A DNA stretch of 64,000 bases from Candidatus Yanofskybacteria bacterium RIFCSPHIGHO2_01_FULL_41_21 (lineage in GTDB: Bacteria; Patescibacteriota; Minisyncoccia; 2-02-FULL-40-12; GWA2-44-9): the NCBI GenBank assembly GCA_001794025.1, contig MGJA01000007.1, positions 219 through 64,218 of the forward strand, in the 5' to 3' direction. The translations under genes were made by a program, and so were the position numbers. How positions within the stretch are numbered: position 1 is the first letter of the stretch; each line of letters begins with the position of its first letter. This document shows, in pieces, positions 20,399 to 63,973 of the stretch. The notes under the pieces were generated by a model, which did no database searches, had not been told where the DNA came from, and saw only the letters and a program-made list of their open reading frames with translations.

Positions 20399-20402
20399 GT
20401 AC

Positions 20403-21074
20403 TTACTTTTCGTCGCCTGAAAAGCGACGGCTCATAGCAAGGGCTTCCTCAGAAGAAGTCTCTCGCATGAGCTCCCTCAAACTCTTACCGCCCTTTTGGG
20501 GCGATGGCGGAACCGACTGGCTCGAGGAGGTGGTTGGCAACGTGGCTTGTGGAACCGTCTGCTCCGGGACACAGACGTATCCCTGAGGACAACCCTGCGC
20601 CACAGTGGCCGGCGCGGCCTGTTGAGTCTCAGGAGCCACCGGAGTAGTGGCAACGACCTGCGACGTCGGCAACGTCGGGGTCGTCATATCAACGTTCGGT
20701 GCGGCCTGTCCAGCAGTCGGCGCGACGGTGGCCTTTGCCGAACCCCACCAGGAACTCGGCGACCACAGCGAGAACGACCTCGCTGTCGCCGTTGCCGCCG
20801 GCCAGAGATCCGTACTCACCCGATTGTACAGAGTCACTCCCAACAGGAGCAGTCCGACAATCAGAACGATCCGCCAGATACCGTTGAACACTCGCAAGAT
20901 AGTGGCTCGGAAGTGCCACCCCGCTCCCAGAAGGATAATTAGGATGATCCAGAACCACCACGACTTGATGTCCATGGAGGACAGGATCGAGATCATGATA
21001 CCCGCGAGAAGAAGAATCCCCCCTCGTAGATACAAAAGGCCGGGACCCAGAAGCCATGCAATAACCCTTGCCAT
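20403..21074 (-). CDS. hypothetical membrane protein (GC-rich island)
   Basis: Four TM helices, then a T/P/Q-rich tail. About 60% GC against the ~40% bulk. Confidence 0.5.
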   Translation of the reverse strand: MARVIAWLLGPGLLYLRGGILLLAGIMISILSSMDIKSWWFWIILIILLGAGWHFRATILRVFNGIWRIVLIVGLLLLGVTLYNRVSTDLWPAATATARSFSLWSPSSWWGSAKATVAPTAGQAAPNVDMTTPTLPTSQVVATTPVAPETQQAAPATVAQGCPQGYVCVPEQTVPQATLPTTSSSQSVPPSPQKGGKSLRELMRETSSEEALAMSRRFSGDEK

Positions 21075-21151
21075 AGTATCACCTCATAGAAAAGAGTTTT
21101 GTCAGGCGAGGCGGGATGCCTCGCCTGACGAGTTGTATTTCTCTACCCCAC

Positions 21152-22174
21152 CTACTGACGGCAGGGCTGCCCCTCGCACTTCGACGAGATAATCCAACCC
21201 TCCGAACCGCCCAGCGACACCCAATCCATATCGATGCCGGTGACGGGAACCGCCTGCCCGTTCTTCTGGCGATACACGAGGGCGTTGACCCCCGTGTTTC
21301 CCGCGGGGAGGATGAAAATCCTTTCCTCACCTGGCGGAACCAAGCACTGGTCAAGCGACCCGTCCTTGGCCATCAGGAGGAGATCGGACTCCCACATGTT
21401 GATGTAGATCGAACCACGCGCGACGTCCTTGACGTCGCGTGGGGTCAGGTCGTACTTGGAAAGCTGTTCCAGAAGGGTAATCCTAGTCCAGCACTTGCCA
21501 TACAGTTGCCTGGCAAGGGCCGAAACCATCAGGTTTTCCTCGGTAAAGGCCCTTTGAGGGGCCAACACCGGAGGTGCCTGCTGGTAGACCATCTCTTGAT
21601 CCGCCTGCTGGCCGGGATACGAAGACGTCTGGGACTGCTGCCCCGCCGGCATCTGCTGGACCTGCGGGTCATCCTCCATGAGGATTTCACCGCGAGGGGC
21701 TTTGGGTTCCCCTCTATACCTGGAATCGTTGGTGAGAACGGCACCTGCCGCTGCCTCTACCCAGCCCCATGGACTTCTGGGGTTGATGGCCGCTCGACGA
21801 ATACCGTCAACAACCATCACGATTCCCGCACCACGCTCAATGCGCTGACGCATGTTTGGAGGGAGATGCCGCATTTGTTCATTGTACAAAGGGAAGAACC
21901 CTCGAGGGTTACTTACCCCGTACATACGTGCCTCTTCATTCCACCCGAAATCGCTGACCACCGTCCGAATCCGGGCACGACGGTACTGATCACCCATCCG
22001 ACGGACCATCGCCAAATTGTCGGCAGTGAGCATTCCCACCTGGTCCCCACGAACCAGGTAGTACCAACCTTCAATCGACTGGGGCACGTATCCCCAACGG
22101 ATCTGCGCGTTGGCCGTGGTGGCCGACGCGAGAAGTACGAGAACAGCGAACAGCGCGAGAATCATCTTCTTCAT
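21152..22174 (-). CDS. hypothetical secreted protein (GC-rich island)
   Basis: The start is set at MKKMILALFAVLVLLASATTANA (signal peptide), with AGGAG 7 nt upstream. Q-rich linker. GC-rich. Confidence 0.5.
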   Translation of the reverse strand: MKKMILALFAVLVLLASATTANAQIRWGYVPQSIEGWYYLVRGDQVGMLTADNLAMVRRMGDQYRRARIRTVVSDFGWNEEARMYGVSNPRGFFPLYNEQMRHLPPNMRQRIERGAGIVMVVDGIRRAAINPRSPWGWVEAAAGAVLTNDSRYRGEPKAPRGEILMEDDPQVQQMPAGQQSQTSSYPGQQADQEMVYQQAPPVLAPQRAFTEENLMVSALARQLYGKCWTRITLLEQLSKYDLTPRDVKDVARGSIYINMWESDLLLMAKDGSLDQCLVPPGEERIFILPAGNTGVNALVYRQKNGQAVPVTGIDMDWVSLGGSEGWIISSKCEGQPCRQ

Positions 22175-22273
22175 GGCACTCTCCTGAAAGCCCCTGCGCA
22201 TCATGCACAAGGGCGAAAACGAACTGAACTTATTTGATTGTCAGGGTACATCCCTAACCATCTGAATACTTCT

Positions 22274-54200: not shown

Positions 54201-56243
<2,043 letters not shown>

Positions 56244-56284
56244 CAGTGTTTGATTCCAAAGCTCTTATAATATATAATAAAATT

Positions 56285-56488
56285 ATGACGTATTTAACAG
56301 TTATTCACAAAAGCAAACATGGTTATGACGTACACGTTCCAGCCCTTCCCGGTTGTCATAGTCAAGGCAAGACAAAAAAAGAAGCATTAAGCAATATTCA
56401 AGACGCTATCCTTGCATATCTCTTCATGTCTCAAGATGAACTTAAGGGATCAGAAGTAAAAGAAGTCACGGTTGCCCTCCCTTCTTAA
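56285..56488 (+). CDS. hicB: HicB-family antitoxin
   Basis: YDVHVPALPGCHSQGKTKKEALSNIQDAILAYL matches the HicB core. The start is set at the internal Met. Confidence 0.65.
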   Translation: MTYLTVIHKSKHGYDVHVPALPGCHSQGKTKKEALSNIQDAILAYLFMSQDELKGSEVKEVTVALPS

Positions 56489-56490
56489 GT

Positions 56491-56706
56491 ATGCTGTTCA
56501 CCGACTTATCTGAAAAGCGAGTTGTAACGGCCCTTCAAAAGGGCGGTTTTTGGATTGCAAAAACATTTGGAAAGAAACACGTCGGTATGACAAACGGTAC
56601 AAGAAAAATTATTATACCTCGGACTACAAGAGTTAACCCCTACACATTGAAGGGTATCATTCGAGATGCAGGTTTAACAGACGAAGAATTCAAAAAACTT
56701 TTATAA
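56491..56706 (+). CDS. hicA: HicA-family mRNA interferase toxin
   Basis: GKKHVGMTNGTRKIIIPRTT...LKGIIRDAGLTDEEFKKLL matches the HicA/YcfA pattern. Confidence 0.7.
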   Translation: MLFTDLSEKRVVTALQKGGFWIAKTFGKKHVGMTNGTRKIIIPRTTRVNPYTLKGIIRDAGLTDEEFKKLL

Positions 56707-57721
56707 GCTCCTGTAACTTATTGGCATTGCCATGACTTAATAAACCAAAGTACGACTGAAGGGTTGCTTTGTTATTTTTACGCTCTTTAATACGTTTAAA
56801 CATTCTTCGTTTGGTTGCGGCTCGTAAGACCCGATGATTGGGAAAATGCACCCAACCCAGAAAATCTTCACCGGAGGCAATAGTCCGGATTGAGACCTTA
56901 TTTGGATGAATACTCAGTCCCAATTCTTCAGACAAAAAATCTCCTATTTTCGGCAGAAGTTCTTGAAGCCAATATTTATCATGTGATACTACCACAAAAT
57001 CATCAGCGTATCTGATATAATATTTCGCTTTCATACTATGTTTCATAAACTGGTCAAACTTATTCATGTATATATTTACAAATAATTGGGAGGTGAGATT
57101 GCCGAGTGGCAAGCCGATAGTCGGCTTTATAGAATGGAAACTGCTAATAATCTGATTTATCAGCCATCGTACATCTTGGTCACTTATATAACTGTCAAGT
57201 ATTTGCATAAGCGCAACCTTGTTAACTGAAGCAAAAAACTTTCTGATATCACATTTCAAAACCCAAACGGTTTTGGTATTATTGTAGCTATCTTGATTTA
57301 CAAATAACTGAAAACGATTCAAGGGCTTATGGCTCCCTTTTCCAATCCGGCAAGAATATGAGTCATAAATAAATGTTCGGTCAAAAAATGGATATAAGAT
57401 ACGGTAAATGGCATGATGAAGTAGTCGGTCTCGAACGCTTGCCTTGTGGATACTTCGAGGTTTGGGGTCGGAAATTTTAAAGGCCTCATACCCGCCATGC
57501 CGATATGTTTTGGCCGCGAGATCGCGATGCAGTAAAATAATATTGCTCATCAAGTTTTGTTCAAATTCTTGAACATCTTTGCGTTTTCTTTTTCCGACCC
57601 GAAATTCCTTCCACGCCTCAAGGAGATTTTCAAGAGATATGATATTATCGTAACTATGAGTGAATTTAATTCTCACAAAAATTATGACCCTGTAAGCCCC
57701 CCCCCCCACGGCTTCTGCCAC
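56690..57721 (-). CDS. diversity-generating retroelement reverse transcriptase
   Basis: RT motifs including YIRYADDFVV (YxDD). The DGR-specific motif-4 variant LGNLTSQ (I/LGxxxSQ) is present in place of the QGxxxSP form. A TR/VR pair lies 0.4-1 kb upstream on the same strand. Confidence 0.85.
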   Translation of the reverse strand: MAEAVGGGAYRVIIFVRIKFTHSYDNIISLENLLEAWKEFRVGKRKRKDVQEFEQNLMSNIILLHRDLAAKTYRHGGYEAFKISDPKPRSIHKASVRDRLLHHAIYRILYPFFDRTFIYDSYSCRIGKGSHKPLNRFQLFVNQDSYNNTKTVWVLKCDIRKFFASVNKVALMQILDSYISDQDVRWLINQIISSFHSIKPTIGLPLGNLTSQLFVNIYMNKFDQFMKHSMKAKYYIRYADDFVVVSHDKYWLQELLPKIGDFLSEELGLSIHPNKVSIRTIASGEDFLGWVHFPNHRVLRAATKRRMFKRIKERKNNKATLQSYFGLLSHGNANKLQELIKVF

Positions 57722-57732
57722 TTTTACAGGAA

Positions 57733-58089
57733 GTGAAGATGGCTTACTTGCTCTGGTTTGAATATTACCAAACCATACCTAAAGCGCACAGGCACACCCT
57801 TGGCCAGCAAATAGATAATCTTTGGATTGAAATTATAAAAACACTCGCTGTCGCGAGTTTTTTACCGCGTCAAGAAAAACTGCCTTATGTCCGCTCAACA
57901 ATCCAAAAAGTTGATACATTGAAAATATTGCTGATGATCCTGTGGGAAGCGGGCTCTCTCCAAAACCAAAAATATATCGCACTCTCACTAAAGATTGAAA
58001 TCATCGGTAAAATGTTAGGTGGTTGGAACGGTCAGCTTATAAAACAAAACTCCTCCGAATCTGCCGCTCGGCAATCGAAGGAGAAATGA
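57733..58089 (+). CDS. small helical protein between the reverse transcriptase and template repeat; possible Avd-like accessory protein
   Basis: 118 aa, predicted helical, positioned between the reverse transcriptase gene and the template repeat. Its orientation is opposite to the reverse transcriptase, so assignment is tentative. Confidence 0.3.
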   Translation: MKMAYLLWFEYYQTIPKAHRHTLGQQIDNLWIEIIKTLAVASFLPRQEKLPYVRSTIQKVDTLKILLMILWEAGSLQNQKYIALSLKIEIIGKMLGGWNGQLIKQNSSESAARQSKEK

Positions 58090-58095
58090 AGAGAG

Positions 58096-58218
58096 TTGCG
58101 AGCACGGCGGACGGGTTGTTGACGTTCCAGTCATTGTCGAGCCAGTTGTAGTTCCAGTTCCACGCACCGTCGTTGAAGTAGAAGTACAGGACGTAACGGT
58201 TGCCGTTCGGACTGCGTT
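58096..58218 (-). repeat. DGR template repeat
   Basis: A 123-nt repeat about 99/123 identical to 58580-58702. All 24 mismatches fall at positions that are A on the minus strand of this copy. Read in the variable-repeat frame, these positions give Asn (AAC) codons (NDGAWNWNYNWLDNDWNVNN). Confidence 0.85.
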
Positions 58219-58565
58219 GTGTGAAATGCCTTCTTTGTCCCTGCCCCCTTTGAAGGCCCACGCCGATCTTGGGTTCTATTGTCTTCGGCATCGTAATGCC
58301 CTAGCATCCCACACCAAGTATCTTCAATTTTTGAAGTTTCTGCATACACCGCGCTATCTCAAACACATGGTCGGAAATATTCTGGATGTATGGATACTGG
58401 CTTCGGTAGCGAGAAACCATGGTCGCCCGCATATTCACCTGGTGCCAGTTTTATTATATCAAGATTTTTTGGATAAAAATATCCCTGATGGGCTACGCGT
58501 CAGACGCGTAGCCCATCAGGGCAGAGATCAAAGATCCCGAGAGCCAGAACTTAGTGCCCCAGAAC

Positions 58566-59291
58566 CTAGGCCTGATTACTTGCGAGCACGGCGGACGGGC
58601 GGCCGACGCCCCAGTCATCGCCGAGCCAGCGGCAGCGCCAGCTCCACGCACCGTCGAAGAAGTAGAAGCACAGGACGCAACGGAAGCCGCGCGGACTGCG
58701 CAACACCGTGCCGTCGCAGTAGATGTACGTCGTGTTGCCGTTCGTCTTCTCCTTGAAGCGAGCCGGGAGCAACTCACGATTGTCCCACAGCGCTTTGAAA
58801 GCGCCAGCGTCCAAACGAATCTCGCCCGACACCTTGAGACGCTTCAGCTTTTCTTCTCCACCGACGGCGGTCTCGCCCGGCTTGAGTGTGCTCTTCAGCA
58901 CAATCGCGCTCAAGTCAATCTGGGCAAGGGCGAGCGAACGCAGATCCTGTTCTTCGTCACCCGAGAGACCATCGCCGTCTGCCGGACCCCGCCAGATTGT
59001 CCACCCCGCGCCGATAAATTCGGCGGGATTGAACGGCTTGGACCGGTCAATCGGGATGATTCTCGGCTCTCCGACGATGACCCGCGCGCCGTTACGCAGG
59101 AAGGTGGTGAACTGCTGACCCGCTCCCGCCATGTCACGCATGACTCGGTCTTGCAGTCCCGCGCCATCAAAATCGATGGTGGACCAGTCAGTGTTCGTGG
59201 CAAGAGCCGCCATGATTGCGTGGGATTGGTCGAGAGTGATTTTCCCCATTGCCGTCTCCATTCTGAGATGTCCGCTTACTATTGGTCCCAC
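58566..59291 (-). CDS. DGR target (variable) protein, GC-rich
   Basis: A 241-aa ORF whose C-terminus (YIYCDGTVLRSPRGFRCVLCFYFFDGAWSWRCRWLGDDWGVGRPSAV) is encoded by the variable repeat. About 60% GC. Confidence 0.7.
   Translation of the reverse strand: MGPIVSGHLRMETAMGKITLDQSHAIMAALATNTDWSTIDFDGAGLQDRVMRDMAGAGQQFTTFLRNGARVIVGEPRIIPIDRSKPFNPAEFIGAGWTIWRGPADGDGLSGDEEQDLRSLALAQIDLSAIVLKSTLKPGETAVGGEEKLKRLKVSGEIRLDAGAFKALWDNRELLPARFKEKTNGNTTYIYCDGTVLRSPRGFRCVLCFYFFDGAWSWRCRWLGDDWGVGRPSAVLASNQA
58580..58702 (-). repeat. DGR variable repeat in the 3' end of the target gene
   Basis: The counterpart of the template repeat, carrying C/G/T substitutions at every template-repeat adenine position. It encodes the last ~45 residues of the ORF at 58566-59291. 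Confidence 0.85.
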
Positions 59292-59485
59292 GTCATGCGA
59301 GATTTAAGTAAACGACCTACGGTTTTTTACCGCAGAATATAAATGCCATTTATATAGCCGCTATATTCTGCGGTAATCCTTAAAAACAGGTTAATAAAGT
59401 ACTATTTAATTACTTCTTAAGTATACGCCTAATTCTAACAAAAGTCAATGGTGGCAAAGAAGGTCAAATATGATATTTTTAGGAT

Positions 59486-59791
59486 ATGCTAAGCGATTCT
59501 GAACTAGACCATATTGCAAAATTGGCGCGAGTAACGGTGGCGCCGGAGAAGAGGGAACAGCTGAAGAAAGACCTGTCGGCGATTTTGGGTTACATTGAAA
59601 AACTAAATAAGGCCGACACAAGTTCAGTAGAACCGCTTTATCAAACCACGGGACTGGTAAATGCAACCCGTAGCGATGAACCGCGTGGAGAATTTCCAAT
59701 GACCGAAAAACTGGAAGAATTGCTTATCGGCCAAGCTCCAACTCGCAAAGAAAGGTTCGTTAAAGTGCGCTCAATCTTGAACAAGAAGTAG
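59486..59791 (+). CDS. gatC: Asp-tRNA(Asn)/Glu-tRNA(Gln) amidotransferase subunit C
   Basis: A ~100-aa protein with the GatC pattern (IAKLARV...EKL.KDL..IL.YIE.L...DT..VEP). Confidence 0.85.
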
Positions 59792-59822
59792 GAATTATGA
59801 ATTAGGAATCAGGCCAGCAAAA

Positions 59823-61250
59823 ATGAATAAAAATTACACTATTAAGACAGCTCGGGAAGATTTAGATAAAGGTAAAATTTCTACCGAAGAGCTTTTTAAT
59901 TATTACCGAGACAAAATTAATGCGGAAAATAAAAATCTAAACGCGTATCTCTCAGTTTTTGATTTCCCTAATTCCAAATTCCTAATTCCTAATTCCTTGC
60001 TCTCCGGAATTCCGGTTGCCGTAAAGGACAACATGCTCATTGAGGGAACCCGTACAACTGCCGGTTCAAAGATTCTTGAAAATTATATCGCTTCGTATGA
60101 TGCAACGGTAATTAAAAAACTTCGTAATGCTGGGGTTACATTTCTCGGAAAAACAAACTTAGATGAATTTGCGATGGGCACATCTACCGAAAACTCCGCT
60201 TATGGTCCAACTAAAAATCCTTTGGATGTTTCTCGCATCCCTGGTGGGTCATCAGGTGGTTCCGCAGCGGCCGTCGCCGGAGATCTTTGTGTCTTCGCGC
60301 TTGGTTCCGATACAGGCGGTTCCGTTCGCCAACCCGCCGCTATGTGTGGCATTGTGGGATTAAAACCAACCTATGGGCGTGTATCACGTCATGGTTTGAT
60401 TGCTATGGCATCATCGTTTGATCAAATTGGTCCGCTGACTAAAACCGTTGAGGATTCAGCTATTGTTCTCAATGCACTCTGTGGTCATGATATTTTTGAT
60501 TCCACAACCGTAAATGACGAAGTGCCAGATTTCACGACCACACTCAATGATTCTATAAAAGGATTGACTGTCGGCGTTCCGAAAGAATTTTTTGCCATGC
60601 CTACCGGCAGGCAGGGCACCGGACTTTCTGCAGAGGTCTCTGAGCGGGTGCAAGCTGGAATTACAAAACTCAAAGATCTTGGTTGTAAAATTAAAGAAAT
60701 CTCTCTTCCTAATTTTGAATATGCGTTATCTGCCTACTATGTCGCTGTGCCCAGTGAGGTTTCGGCGAACTTAGCTCGTTTTGATGGTGTCCGTTACGGT
60801 CATTCCGCAAAAGACGGAGAAAATCTGATTGATACTTATTTTAAATCCCGAACTGAAGGCCTAGGTCCGGAACCAGTCCGTCGAATCATGCTTGGCGCTT
60901 ATGCATTGTCGTCAGGTTATTACGATGCCTATTATCTTAAAGCCCAAAAAGTTCGCGCCCTTATTAAAAAGGACTTTGATGATGCCTTTAAAGATGTTGA
61001 CATTATCGTCGGACCAGCTACACCCAACACCGCTTTCAAGATAGGGGAGAAGGTTTCCGACCCACTTGCGTTATACTTAGAGGACATCTATACCGTCCCT
61101 TTGAATCTAGCCGGACTACCAGGTATTTCAATCCCGTGTGGCCTTGGTTCAACCAGCAAGATGCCCGTTGGATTCCAGATCATCGCTAAATCGTTTGATG
61201 AGACCACTTTACTTCGTGTCGCTCACCAATTAGAACAAGCACTATTATAA
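59823..61250 (+). CDS. gatA: Glu-tRNA(Gln) amidotransferase subunit A (amidase family)
   Basis: Amidase signature [12 protein letters not shown] and the catalytic Ser/Lys context. Contains the in-frame [11 protein letters not shown] segment derived from a dispersed repeat. Confidence 0.9.
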
Positions 61251-62288: not shown

Positions 62289-62362
62289 TGGTGGACCTAC
62301 CGGGAATCGAACCCGGCCCTCATCCATGCCATGGATGCGTAATACCGATTTACTATAGGCCC
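62289..62362 (-). tRNA. tRNA-Ala (anticodon GGC), CCA encoded
   Basis: Acceptor gggccta/taggtcc with a G3:U70 wobble (Ala identity element). Anticodon arm catcc-atGGCat-ggatg, T-loop ggttcgattcc. Confidence 0.8.
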
Positions 62363-62432: not shown

Positions 62433-62508
62433 GCCCTTGTAGTTCAATGGATAAGAACAGTCCCGTCCTAAGGGATAGATGTAGGTTCGATTCCTACTGA
62501 GGGCACCA
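62433..62508 (+). tRNA. tRNA-Arg (anticodon CCU), CCA encoded
   Basis: Acceptor gcccttg/tgagggc (two G-U pairs), D-stem gttc/gaac, anticodon arm gtccc-gtCCTaa-gggat, T-loop gtaggttcgattcctac. Confidence 0.75.
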
Positions 62509-63973
62509 CAATCAAACTTTCCGATTTTTGCCCGACCGATTCGGCCGCGCGAAGCGCGGAAAGGTATGGAAGCACTGGCTCGCCGCGCACGGCGCGGCTC
62601 GCCAAGCGCAGGTTCGAGCCAAAGATTTCTTTGGCAGCAACCTTCTTCGCAAGAAGGTTGCTATCCCTTGCGATTTTGACGAGGGTTAAAGCGACTTTTA
62701 TCCAGTTTTGGAACGGTTCGAGCCAATCATTCTGCTTTTGTTCAATCCGCGCCATTTTCTCCTCCAGCGACTTCTTTTCCAAAAGGAGTTTTGTTTTTTG
62801 TTCGCGGTAGATTTCTCGCTCAATGTCCTGCTCTAAATAGCCGTCCAGAAGTCGCTGGAGCTTCGTTTGTATGGCGCGGATTTTGATTTGAGATTCAAGA
62901 ACAAAAGCAGAAACGGATTGGGCGGATACCGCTTTGTCTTTTTCTGCCATTGCTAACAATTTTTCCGCCCAATCCGGTCGCAAAGAAACTTTTTGAATAA
63001 GAGATGATAACTGCCGATCCAATTCTTCCTCGCGGGCATAAGGTTGAGAACATTTGATTTTCTTTTTGGTACAGCGGTAGTAAATATGTCCTTTCTGTTT
63101 TTCGGCAGTTATCATCATCCCGCACTCGGCGCAAGAGATAAGGCCGCAAAATGCTTGCGGTTCATTCTTTTGCTTATACCTCGGCTTTCCTCGTTGGTGT
63201 AAAATCTCTTGCGCCATATCAAAAAGTTTCTTTGTGATGATTGGCTCGTACTTTCCTTCGTGGAGTTCACCGCCATATTTGAATAATCCGGTGTAGAACG
63301 GATTGGAAAGGATAAAAGTCGCCCTCGTCTTGTGGATTCTCTTTCCGCCGCGGGAGAATATCCCGCGTTGCGCCAAAAAGTTTGAAATATCCTCTAACCG
63401 CGAATTTCCTTTTGCGTACAGCTCAAACGCTTGGCGAATAATCCGAGCTTTCTTGCGGTCAACAACGATAGATTTAGTTCGTACATCATTTATGTAGCCG
63501 ATAGGCGCAACGCTCGGATATTCGCCCCGTCTCACTTTTTGGCGCAAACCACGCTTCGTGTTTTCGGAAAGAGAATCCACATAGTATTTGCTTTGCCCAA
63601 AAGCGATATTCAACATAAATTTTCCTTGCGGCGTTGGCTCAAACCAGAATTGAGGGAATTTCAACGCTGCAATATGCCCGCAATCAATGAGATAAATGAT
63701 TTGTCCACCATCTACAGAATTGCGCGCCAATCTGTCCGGATGCCAAGCCAAAATTCCGTCCGCCTCGCCATGTTCAATTCTTTTCAGCATTTTGCCAAAT
63801 ATCGGACGGCCCGGAATTTTGGCTGATTGTTTCTCTACAAATTCCTCTACCATATAGAGATTATTTTGCTTGGCAAAAGCGCGCAATTCTGTGATCTGCG
63901 CTTCAATACTCAAAACTTGTTTATCCTCAACATCTGTTGATTTGCGGGCGTAGAGAAAAAATTTGTTGTTCAT
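62468..63973 (-). CDS. large serine recombinase (resolvase/invertase N-domain + recombinase domain + zinc ribbon)
   Basis: N-terminal catalytic Ser context (LYARKSTDVEDKQVLSIEAQ), a recombinase domain, a Cys4 zinc ribbon (CAECG...CTKKKIKC) and a coiled-coil. The ORF's 3' end reads into tRNA-Arg (...VGIEPTSIP). Confidence 0.85.
   Translation of the reverse strand: MNNKFFLYARKSTDVEDKQVLSIEAQITELRAFAKQNNLYMVEEFVEKQSAKIPGRPIFGKMLKRIEHGEADGILAWHPDRLARNSVDGGQIIYLIDCGHIAALKFPQFWFEPTPQGKFMLNIAFGQSKYYVDSLSENTKRGLRQKVRRGEYPSVAPIGYINDVRTKSIVVDRKKARIIRQAFELYAKGNSRLEDISNFLAQRGIFSRGGKRIHKTRATFILSNPFYTGLFKYGGELHEGKYEPIITKKLFDMAQEILHQRGKPRYKQKNEPQAFCGLISCAECGMMITAEKQKGHIYYRCTKKKIKCSQPYAREEELDRQLSSLIQKVSLRPDWAEKLLAMAEKDKAVSAQSVSAFVLESQIKIRAIQTKLQRLLDGYLEQDIEREIYREQKTKLLLEKKSLEEKMARIEQKQNDWLEPFQNWIKVALTLVKIARDSNLLAKKVAAKEIFGSNLRLASRAVRGEPVLPYLSALRAAESVGQKSESLIVVPSVGIEPTSIP

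Follow-up and report, generated by a model that had tools for sequence, protein, structure and literature searches.

The 64,000-nucleotide stretch of Candidatus Yanofskybacteria bacterium RIFCSPHIGHO2_01_FULL_41_21 analyzed here (contig MGJA01000007.1, positions 219 to 64,218 of the forward strand, hereafter the window) carries a diversity-generating retroelement (DGR) which is unannotated in GenBank, complete, probably functional, and of a type known from bacteria of the Candidate Phyla Radiation (CPR). The host contig belongs to a Rifle Candidatus Yanofskybacteria genome, and the element is very likely a chromosomal DGR of the Patescibacteria/CPR type with architecture B3. All of its parts are present and intact, namely a target gene with its variable repeat (VR), a template repeat (TR), the accessory gene avd and a gene for a reverse transcriptase (RT). 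As a class the element is unremarkable, CPR bacteria being already known as DGR-rich, and it adds little as a DGR; its value lies in providing a reference locus that is clean and intact and for which a close relative is informative. The comparison with that relative gives direct evidence of TR-to-VR transfer, a second relative documents a precise loss of the core, and a structured leader, a leader-linker duplex, a poly-G tract and the GC excess of the target are testable leads on DGRs with an inverted avd. The parts of the element, with positions counted from the first nucleotide of the window, are as follows.

58566..59249, minus strand: DGR target gene of 227 aa, with an open reading frame (ORF) readable back to a GTG at 59291
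58580..58702, minus strand: VR, a 123-nt repeat of the TR, forming the last ~41 codons before the ...PSAVLASNQA C-terminus of the target
58096..58218, minus strand: TR, with A at all 24 variable sites
57739..58089, plus strand: avd, 116 aa, antiparallel to RT, TR and target
56690..57676, minus strand: DGR RT, 328 aa from a GTG at 57676, with an ORF open back to 57721

Along the minus strand, the target (59249-58566) comes first, followed by TR (58218-58096), by avd, which is encoded on the plus strand (57739-58089), and by RT (57676-56690); this is the B3 arrangement, given as 'TR-(avd)-RT' by Wu et al. 2018 (PMC5758913) and making up 90% of their CPR set. The reversed avd is no anomaly, because B3 is the norm for CPR DGRs. 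A total of 62 related genome loci were fetched through relatives of the target protein, and about 22 of them show the same arrangement of target, ~350 nt spacer, TR, opposite-strand avd and RT, with avd in the same position and orientation, ending a few bases past the TR, and with the RT diverging from avd. The differences between TR and VR in these loci likewise lie overwhelmingly at adenines. DGR clade 2 of Roux et al. 2021 (PMC8144416) is restricted to Patescibacteria, with targets that are typically without transmembrane or other recognisable domains. The element of the window shares with the CPR DGRs of these two studies the gene order and reversed avd, a small target without recognisable domain or membrane anchor, and a chromosomal location in a groundwater CPR genome, and we found no defining difference from them, the likeness to clade 2 being one of description. 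The contig is absent from Table S3 of Handa et al. (bioRxiv 10.1101/2023.10.23.563531).

The two repeats carry the assignment. A preliminary description of this DNA had reported two 123-nt repeats with 24 differences, all of them at adenines of one copy, and re-alignment bore this out. Aligned without gaps at an offset of 484, TR and VR are identical at 99 of the 123 nt and different at 24, and all 24 differences fall where the TR has T on the plus strand, that is, A on the minus strand, with the C, G and T positions never differing. From TR to VR, the changes on the minus strand comprise 15 A>G, 5 A>T and 4 A>C, and 24 of the 32 minus-strand adenines of the TR are changed in the VR (hypergeometric P = 5e-19 for 24 differences all on 32 adenine sites). 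An independent repeat search returned the same pair with 121 nt at 82% identity, and the TR boundary is uncertain only for the outermost pair of A sites (58217-58218). When every TR adenine is replaced by N, the resulting pattern occurs in exactly two copies in the 64-kb window and in none of the shuffled sequences, and no further VR copies or remote targets were found in the window by this search. When placed in the frame of the target, 30 of the 32 TR adenines occupy codon positions 1 or 2, and the TR contains 10 AAY codons and no codon that is mutable to a stop. The variable codons, 18 in number, allow ~4e16 possible protein variants; the VR spans ~41 codons and is followed by the final four residues of the target.

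The GC-rich block shared by the 3′ ends of TR and VR is present as described, with a length of 20 nt, after which the two copies diverge, the VR continuing from GCAA into GTAATCAGG and the TR from GCAA into CTCTCTTCATTT. This block had been proposed as a pair of initiation of mutagenic homing sequences (IMH/IMH*). Since TR and VR do not differ within it, the block can represent no more than the common GC-rich portion of the IMH, and the putative discriminating IMH/IMH* sequence would start right after it. The flanks past the shared block are kept across relatives, on the TR side and the VR side alike. Between the VR's end and the hairpin that follows the target (58522-58579, minus strand), blocks conserved in relatives were observed, with GCAAGT..AG directly past the VR and a CTTTGA.CTTTGC-like motif ~45 nt downstream of it; these blocks are possibly the discriminating part of the IMH or a target-recognition element.

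Judged from its sequence, the RT belongs to the DGR lineage and not to the group II intron, retron or defence RTs. It matches Pfam RVT_1 (E 1.6e-21) and PHROG 1423 (6e-110), and its best PDB match is 8UB7_A (E 5.5e-47, 164 bits, residues 24-312 aligned), which is bRT as solved in the bRT-Avd-RNA complex of the Bordetella phage DGR, with group II intron RTs coming next at 74 bits, followed by retron-type, Cas-linked and Drt RTs. The group II, retron and Drt models of NCBIfam, a library without a DGR RT model, give scores far below their cut-offs. The ORF carries both LPLGNLTSQ, fitting the [LIV]GxxxSQ signature of DGR RTs in motif 4, and YIRYADDFVV, fitting YxDD in motif 5, in agreement with the preliminary description, which had noted YIRYADDFVV and a DGR-type LGNLTSQ. 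The ORF that had been opened at 57721 is real, and a comparison of start regions across the relatives favours GTG 57676 as the most likely start.

The small helical ORF on the opposite strand, for which an Avd-like function had been suggested with some reserve about its orientation, is recognised as Avd by three libraries, and its orientation is the normal one for B3. The ORF extends over 57733-58089 (plus strand), with its most likely start at ATG 57739 preceded by AGGAAG. The product matches Pfam bAvd (E 2.3e-9, 38.1 bits, cut-off 40), the PHROG family 'Avd protein of DGR' (7.6e-12) and NCBIfam DivGenRetAVD (1.2e-13, 51 bits, cut-off 80), and the Pfam and NCBIfam scores below cut-off are as expected for a divergent CPR protein. 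No match to Avd was found among the PDB sequences.

In GenBank the target corresponds exactly to OGM97901.1 (hypothetical protein); it consists of an N-terminal helical region and a C-terminal domain bearing the VR, with no signal peptide evident by eye. The VR had been placed in the C-terminus of a 241-aa ORF; its position at the 3′ end of the target holds, and the length does not, the start being most likely ATG 59249, not 59291, which gives 227 aa. A total of 246 homologs of ~225 aa were found, nearly all in CPR genomes, and no family annotation was obtained in Pfam, PHROG or NCBIfam; a lack of recognisable domains is the published norm for CPR DGR targets (Roux et al. 2021, PMC8144416). 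Treponema TvpA (2Y3C) and Bordetella Mtd (1YU0), DGR variable proteins of known structure with C-type lectin folds, are among the closest known systems, and the VR of the window would encode a probably C-type-lectin-like, ligand-binding surface.

With these parts, and by homology with the Bordetella phage DGR, a TR-containing RNA would be transcribed from the minus strand, and the 328-aa RT together with Avd would copy it into cDNA, misincorporating opposite the template adenines. This cDNA would take the place of the VR in the 3′-terminal part of the target gene (227 aa) and thereby recode up to 18 codons on the probable ligand-binding surface.

The closest available relative, locus L078 (with three other assemblies), matches the window collinearly over 8.5 kb, with 87.5% identity and the same order, gatA-gatC-target-TR-avd-RT-hicA-hicB-ligA. 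The two TRs are identical at 122 of 123 positions, with one C/T difference at a non-adenine site, and the VR of each lineage has the base of its own TR at this site. The VRs of the window and L078 differ at 16 further positions, 16 of 16 at TR adenines. Since each VR mirrors the change in its TR and the VRs otherwise differ only at adenines, retrohoming took place at least once after the lineages split, and TR-to-VR transfer has thus occurred since the separation from this relative. Among the proteins of more distant relatives, clustered at 90% identity, the clusters of P0007, P0018 and P0025 vary only in the VR, with no variation in the first ~170 residues, and other clusters are invariant; the cluster of the target itself has one member. 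In metagenome contigs, no match was obtained with an exact pattern (3′ half of the VR, N at adenine sites), and a protein-seeded scan returned only relatives at ≤73% identity and no contig of the same population.

Substantial variation in divergence was observed along the locus. Compared with L078, identity is 93-99% for the block that extends from hicB into the VR-TR spacer (56228-58550) and ~86% for the housekeeping flanks, with the target outside the VR at 77% and its N-terminal 200 nt at only 55-60%. Compared with a second relative, L075, the flanks are 66-69% and the target 79% identical, and L075 is without exactly 56231-58350, which corresponds to TR, avd, RT and hicAB. It keeps the target, its terminator and the first ~90 nt of the leader described below (5681-5948 of L075), and, when compared with the TR of the window, its VR has retained differences at adenines only.

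The target has a GC content of ~0.61 with 0.75 at third codon positions (GC3), compared with 0.37-0.46 for RT, avd, hicAB and the flanking housekeeping genes (0.38 for the RT and ~0.42 for the flanks, with a GC3 of ~0.38 in the surroundings). From this contrast a chimeric or acquired history had been suggested, in which the GC-rich target and the TR/VR came recently from a high-GC donor and were joined to a host-like, AT-rich RT. The contrast is real, the modules do differ in their identity to L078 (~95% for the core, with the flanks and target lower as given above), and L075 differs from the window by a clean indel of the core block, all of which would suit such an acquisition. The GC content is no proof of it, however, as in 50 of 63 loci (the window and the 62 related ones) the GC content of the target exceeds that of the remaining locus by more than 5 points, with a mean excess of 7-10 points which scales with host GC (r = 0.42), and the RT and avd beside it are not GC-enriched. 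Furthermore, three lineages with flanks 13-32% diverged all have the same GC-rich target between gatC and ligA, at one gatCA/ligA site, which means that the gene has not drifted toward the host composition in the meantime. The TR, for its part, sits inside the AT-rich core block, apart from the target. The GC excess is therefore a family-wide regularity and not the mark of a one-off acquisition, and a recent acquisition of this kind is unlikely; a chimeric history is partly supported, by the divergence of the modules and not by the GC argument. Avoidance of adenine on the coding strand was also considered as the cause of the GC-richness and rejected, as outside the VR both A3 (0.10) and T3 (0.17), the third-position contents of A and T, are depleted.

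Two observations on the target stand beside these. The N-terminal ~50 codons and the sequence upstream (59077-59430) are only 55-70% identical to L078, and a more distant relative (P0002/P0004) has the window's N-terminal type of target, which suggests, from sequence comparison, that the N-terminal helical module may have been swapped. Elsewhere in the window, ~60% GC is reached only at 20400-22250, where two minus-strand ORFs encode a membrane and low-complexity protein of 223 aa and a protein of 352 aa with a hydrophobic segment at its N-terminus; this second GC-rich island (20.4-22.2 kb) was considered as a second target and rejected, its ORFs being unrelated and without a family match.

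A further possibility is that the DGR is a fossil, formerly active, which wrote the adenine pattern and is now dead, leaving the VR as a frozen allele. Several observations weigh in this direction and against a functional element. The VR of the L078-type relative does not vary among several assemblies. Targets that have outlived the loss of their core seem to be frequent, with many target genes of the family lacking RT or avd within 6 kb, and L075 providing a case in which exactly TR, avd, RT and hicAB are gone. Several loci without the core keep only a truncated 5′ piece of the leader beside their RT-less targets (L075-77, L068, L060, L015 and L066). Against this, the RT, avd and target ORFs of the window have kept their full length and the catalytic motifs, the hairpin and the leader are likewise intact, the core block is better conserved relative to L078 than the flanks (93-99% vs ~86%), and the TR is nearly invariant, with its one change copied into the VR. 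A fossil is thus quite unlikely, and the element is better read as complete and probably functional. An RT of group II intron, retron or defence origin beside an unrelated 123-nt duplication can practically be dismissed, for though a group II intron RT/maturase is the best NCBIfam model (141.7 bits), this lies far under the model's cut-off of 300, bRT outscores the group II RTs in the PDB search, Rfam finds no intron RNA or retron family, and an unrelated duplication would not confine 24 of 24 differences to one base.

Around the TR, a set of RNA features was delineated, mostly from an alignment of 21 loci (A2; L001-L047, L078 and others), as follows.

58483..58521, minus strand: perfect 19-bp hairpin followed by ATATTTTTAT, 59 nt past the VR
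58453..58461, minus strand: extended -10-like box TGATATAAT, putative promoter of the TR RNA, read from the sequence
58219..58441, minus strand: structured leader RNA of ~225 nt, directly 5′ of the TR
58405-58439, minus strand: leader helix P1
58343-58392, minus strand: leader helix P2
58219-58314, minus strand: leader helix P3, with a 12-bp closing helix ending at 58219, one base before the TR
58084..58095, minus strand: linker CUCUCUUCAUUU, 12 nt, pyrimidine-rich, holding the avd stop codon on the other strand
58041..58083, minus strand: post-TR hairpin (58050-58083) with UUUUGUUUU (58041-58049), antisense in the last ~15 avd codons

The leader folds in RNAalifold into three domains with 57 pairs, 40 of which show compensatory changes, at -64 kcal/mol. 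Canonical pairing was observed in 97.2% of the pair cells as compared with 85.1% in shuffles, none of 500 shuffles reaching the observed value, and slid partners give 34-49%. Invariant G-U pairs fix the strand of the structure as that of the TR. The leader was found by nhmmer with alignment A2 in every related locus that has the RT/avd core. No Rfam family matches it at E≤1, and the RT-10 motif of Rfam (the BPP-1 spacer RNA) gave no match at E≤1 on either strand of 55500-60000. The 350 nt from the post-TR hairpin to the RT contain no conserved structure (-1.5 kcal/mol, 11 pairs), and a BPP-1-like structured spacer 3′ of that hairpin, which was considered, was not found.

The linker (CTCTCTTCATTT) directly follows the end of the TR/VR homology (…CTCGCAA) and is conserved in the 21 loci. 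A single-stranded segment of the leader just before the third domain (58329-58321; AAAUGAAGA in most loci and AAUUGAAGA in the window) is complementary to the end of the linker, UCUUCAUUU (58092-58084). This pairing is canonical in 179 of 189 cells over the 21 loci, a count reached by 3 of 2000 sets of permuted partners, with co-changes from G-C to A-U in three loci, from A-U to C-G in one and from A-U to U-A in one. A leader-linker duplex of this kind would join both ends of the TR, in the manner of the TR:Sp and avd:Sp duplexes of BPP-1. After the linker, a hairpin and then TTTTGTTTT occur in 21 of 21 loci, with stem pairs 1-7 canonical in 20-21 of them and represented by several pair types, and with 175 of 189 cells paired vs 138 ± 4 when the arms are permuted. 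The hairpin lies past the region of avd that is matched by the Avd profiles. It is in itself an already known feature, as Table S3 of Handa et al. (bioRxiv 10.1101/2023.10.23.563531) lists the same kind of hairpin just 3′ of the TR in CPR DGRs as 'putative Avd-binding stem-loop'; with its U-tract it also has the form of an intrinsic terminator.

Upstream of the leader, the 58483-58521 hairpin looks like the intrinsic terminator of the target, and a hairpin of different sequence stands at the same place in L075 and other family members; it could also be the inverted repeat seen downstream of the IMH in other DGRs. The -10-like box follows this hairpin and precedes the leader, and a similar A/T-rich box is found across relatives at a fixed distance before the conserved TAGGTG at the start of the leader, although a two-hexamer promoter scan did not detect the box at 58453-58461. 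From the comparative structure we infer that the TR RNA may be a separate transcript of ~410 nt, which would start past the target terminator, comprise the ~225-nt leader, the TR and the linker pairing back to the leader, and end at the hairpin and U-tract embedded antisense in the tail of avd. On this separate-transcript reading, the inverted avd would not be transcribed antisense.

To our knowledge, DGR biochemistry exists only for the Bordetella phage element, in which all essential RNA structure lies 3′ of the template. The CPR clade has its inverted avd exactly where the Bordetella element keeps that structure. With the prototype BPP-1 DGR (mtd-avd-TR-brt), the element of the window has in common an RT that is homologous over residues 24-312 and of the same length (328 aa), an Avd, a C-terminal VR, adenine-specific mutagenesis, a GC-rich 3′ end of TR and VR, and a stem-loop directly after the TR. 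It differs in that avd is inverted and placed between TR and RT, in that it does not lie in a phage, and in that its target is not a tail fibre. Moreover, BPP-1 has a structured RNA of ~140 nt (Sp, Rfam motif RT-10) 3′ of the TR and needs only ~20 nt on the 5′ side, whereas here the conserved structure is 5′ of the TR and the 3′ side has only the linker and one hairpin, with RT-10 unmatched.

A joint reading of these features is offered tentatively, as a possibility that we hold to be less probable than its failure. The elements for RT-Avd recruitment and cDNA priming would in the CPR clade be located in the 5′ leader and not in a 3′ spacer, and the leader-linker pairing would bring a conserved adenosine (58321) to the place held in BPP-1 by Sp A56, the cis-priming residue. 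The cDNA stop would be provided by the 12-bp P3 helix abutting the 5′ end of the TR, a concealed RNA end, antisense within the tail of avd, would account for the tolerance of an inverted avd, and the putatively hypermutable poly-G tract described next could additionally turn the DGR on and off. The 5′ leader and the leader-linker duplex would make up a concrete and testable model for the assembly and priming of CPR DGRs. In the DGR literature that was examined, which did not include Paul et al. 2017 or the journal version of Handa et al., we did not find a description of the structured leader, of the leader-linker pairing or of the poly-G tract.

The last of these features lies in the gap between avd and the RT.

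57697..57707: homopolymer (C11 on the plus strand, G11 on that of the RT), within the 62 nt that separate the divergently oriented starts of avd and RT

This tract is the longest G/C run in the window, and a run of G8-G12 on the RT strand occurs at the same place in 15 of 20 related loci. Only 25 G/C runs of at least 8 nt were counted in 721 kb of related loci, nearly all of them at the avd-RT gap. The tract is G10 in L078 vs G11 here, homopolymer lengths in assemblies being error-prone. It looks like a putative slipped-strand switch acting on the expression of RT or avd. No link between DGRs and homopolymer phase variation was found in the literature examined.

The 3′ side of the RT is occupied by a toxin-antitoxin pair.

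56285..56706, plus strand: hicB-hicA toxin-antitoxin pair, convergent with the RT and overlapping its 3′ end

The two genes were identified by Pfam (HicB_lk_antitox, 4e-9; HicA_toxin, 3e-6). They lie within the block 56228-58550 that is 93-99% identical in L078, and are gone together with TR, avd and RT in L075; hicAB is outside the DGR machinery, yet part of the same co-conserved, indel-prone block. The pair was also considered as a regular partner of this DGR clade and rejected, as it was found only in the window and its closest relative.

Further along the window, genes for tRNA-Ala(GGC) and tRNA-Arg(CCT) are located at 62289-62362 and 62433-62508, and an ORF of 501 aa (62468-63973) encodes a large serine recombinase with Resolvase, Recombinase and zinc-ribbon domains, its 3′ end overlapping the tRNA-Arg gene. 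An integrated element may have its boundary here, ~3 kb away from the DGR. Repeats were also observed in the flanking housekeeping genes, with a 29-nt inverted repeat of AGGAATTA-type units (59785-59813/59967-59995) at the gatC-gatA junction and the start of gatA, and tandem CCTAATTCC units inside gatA.

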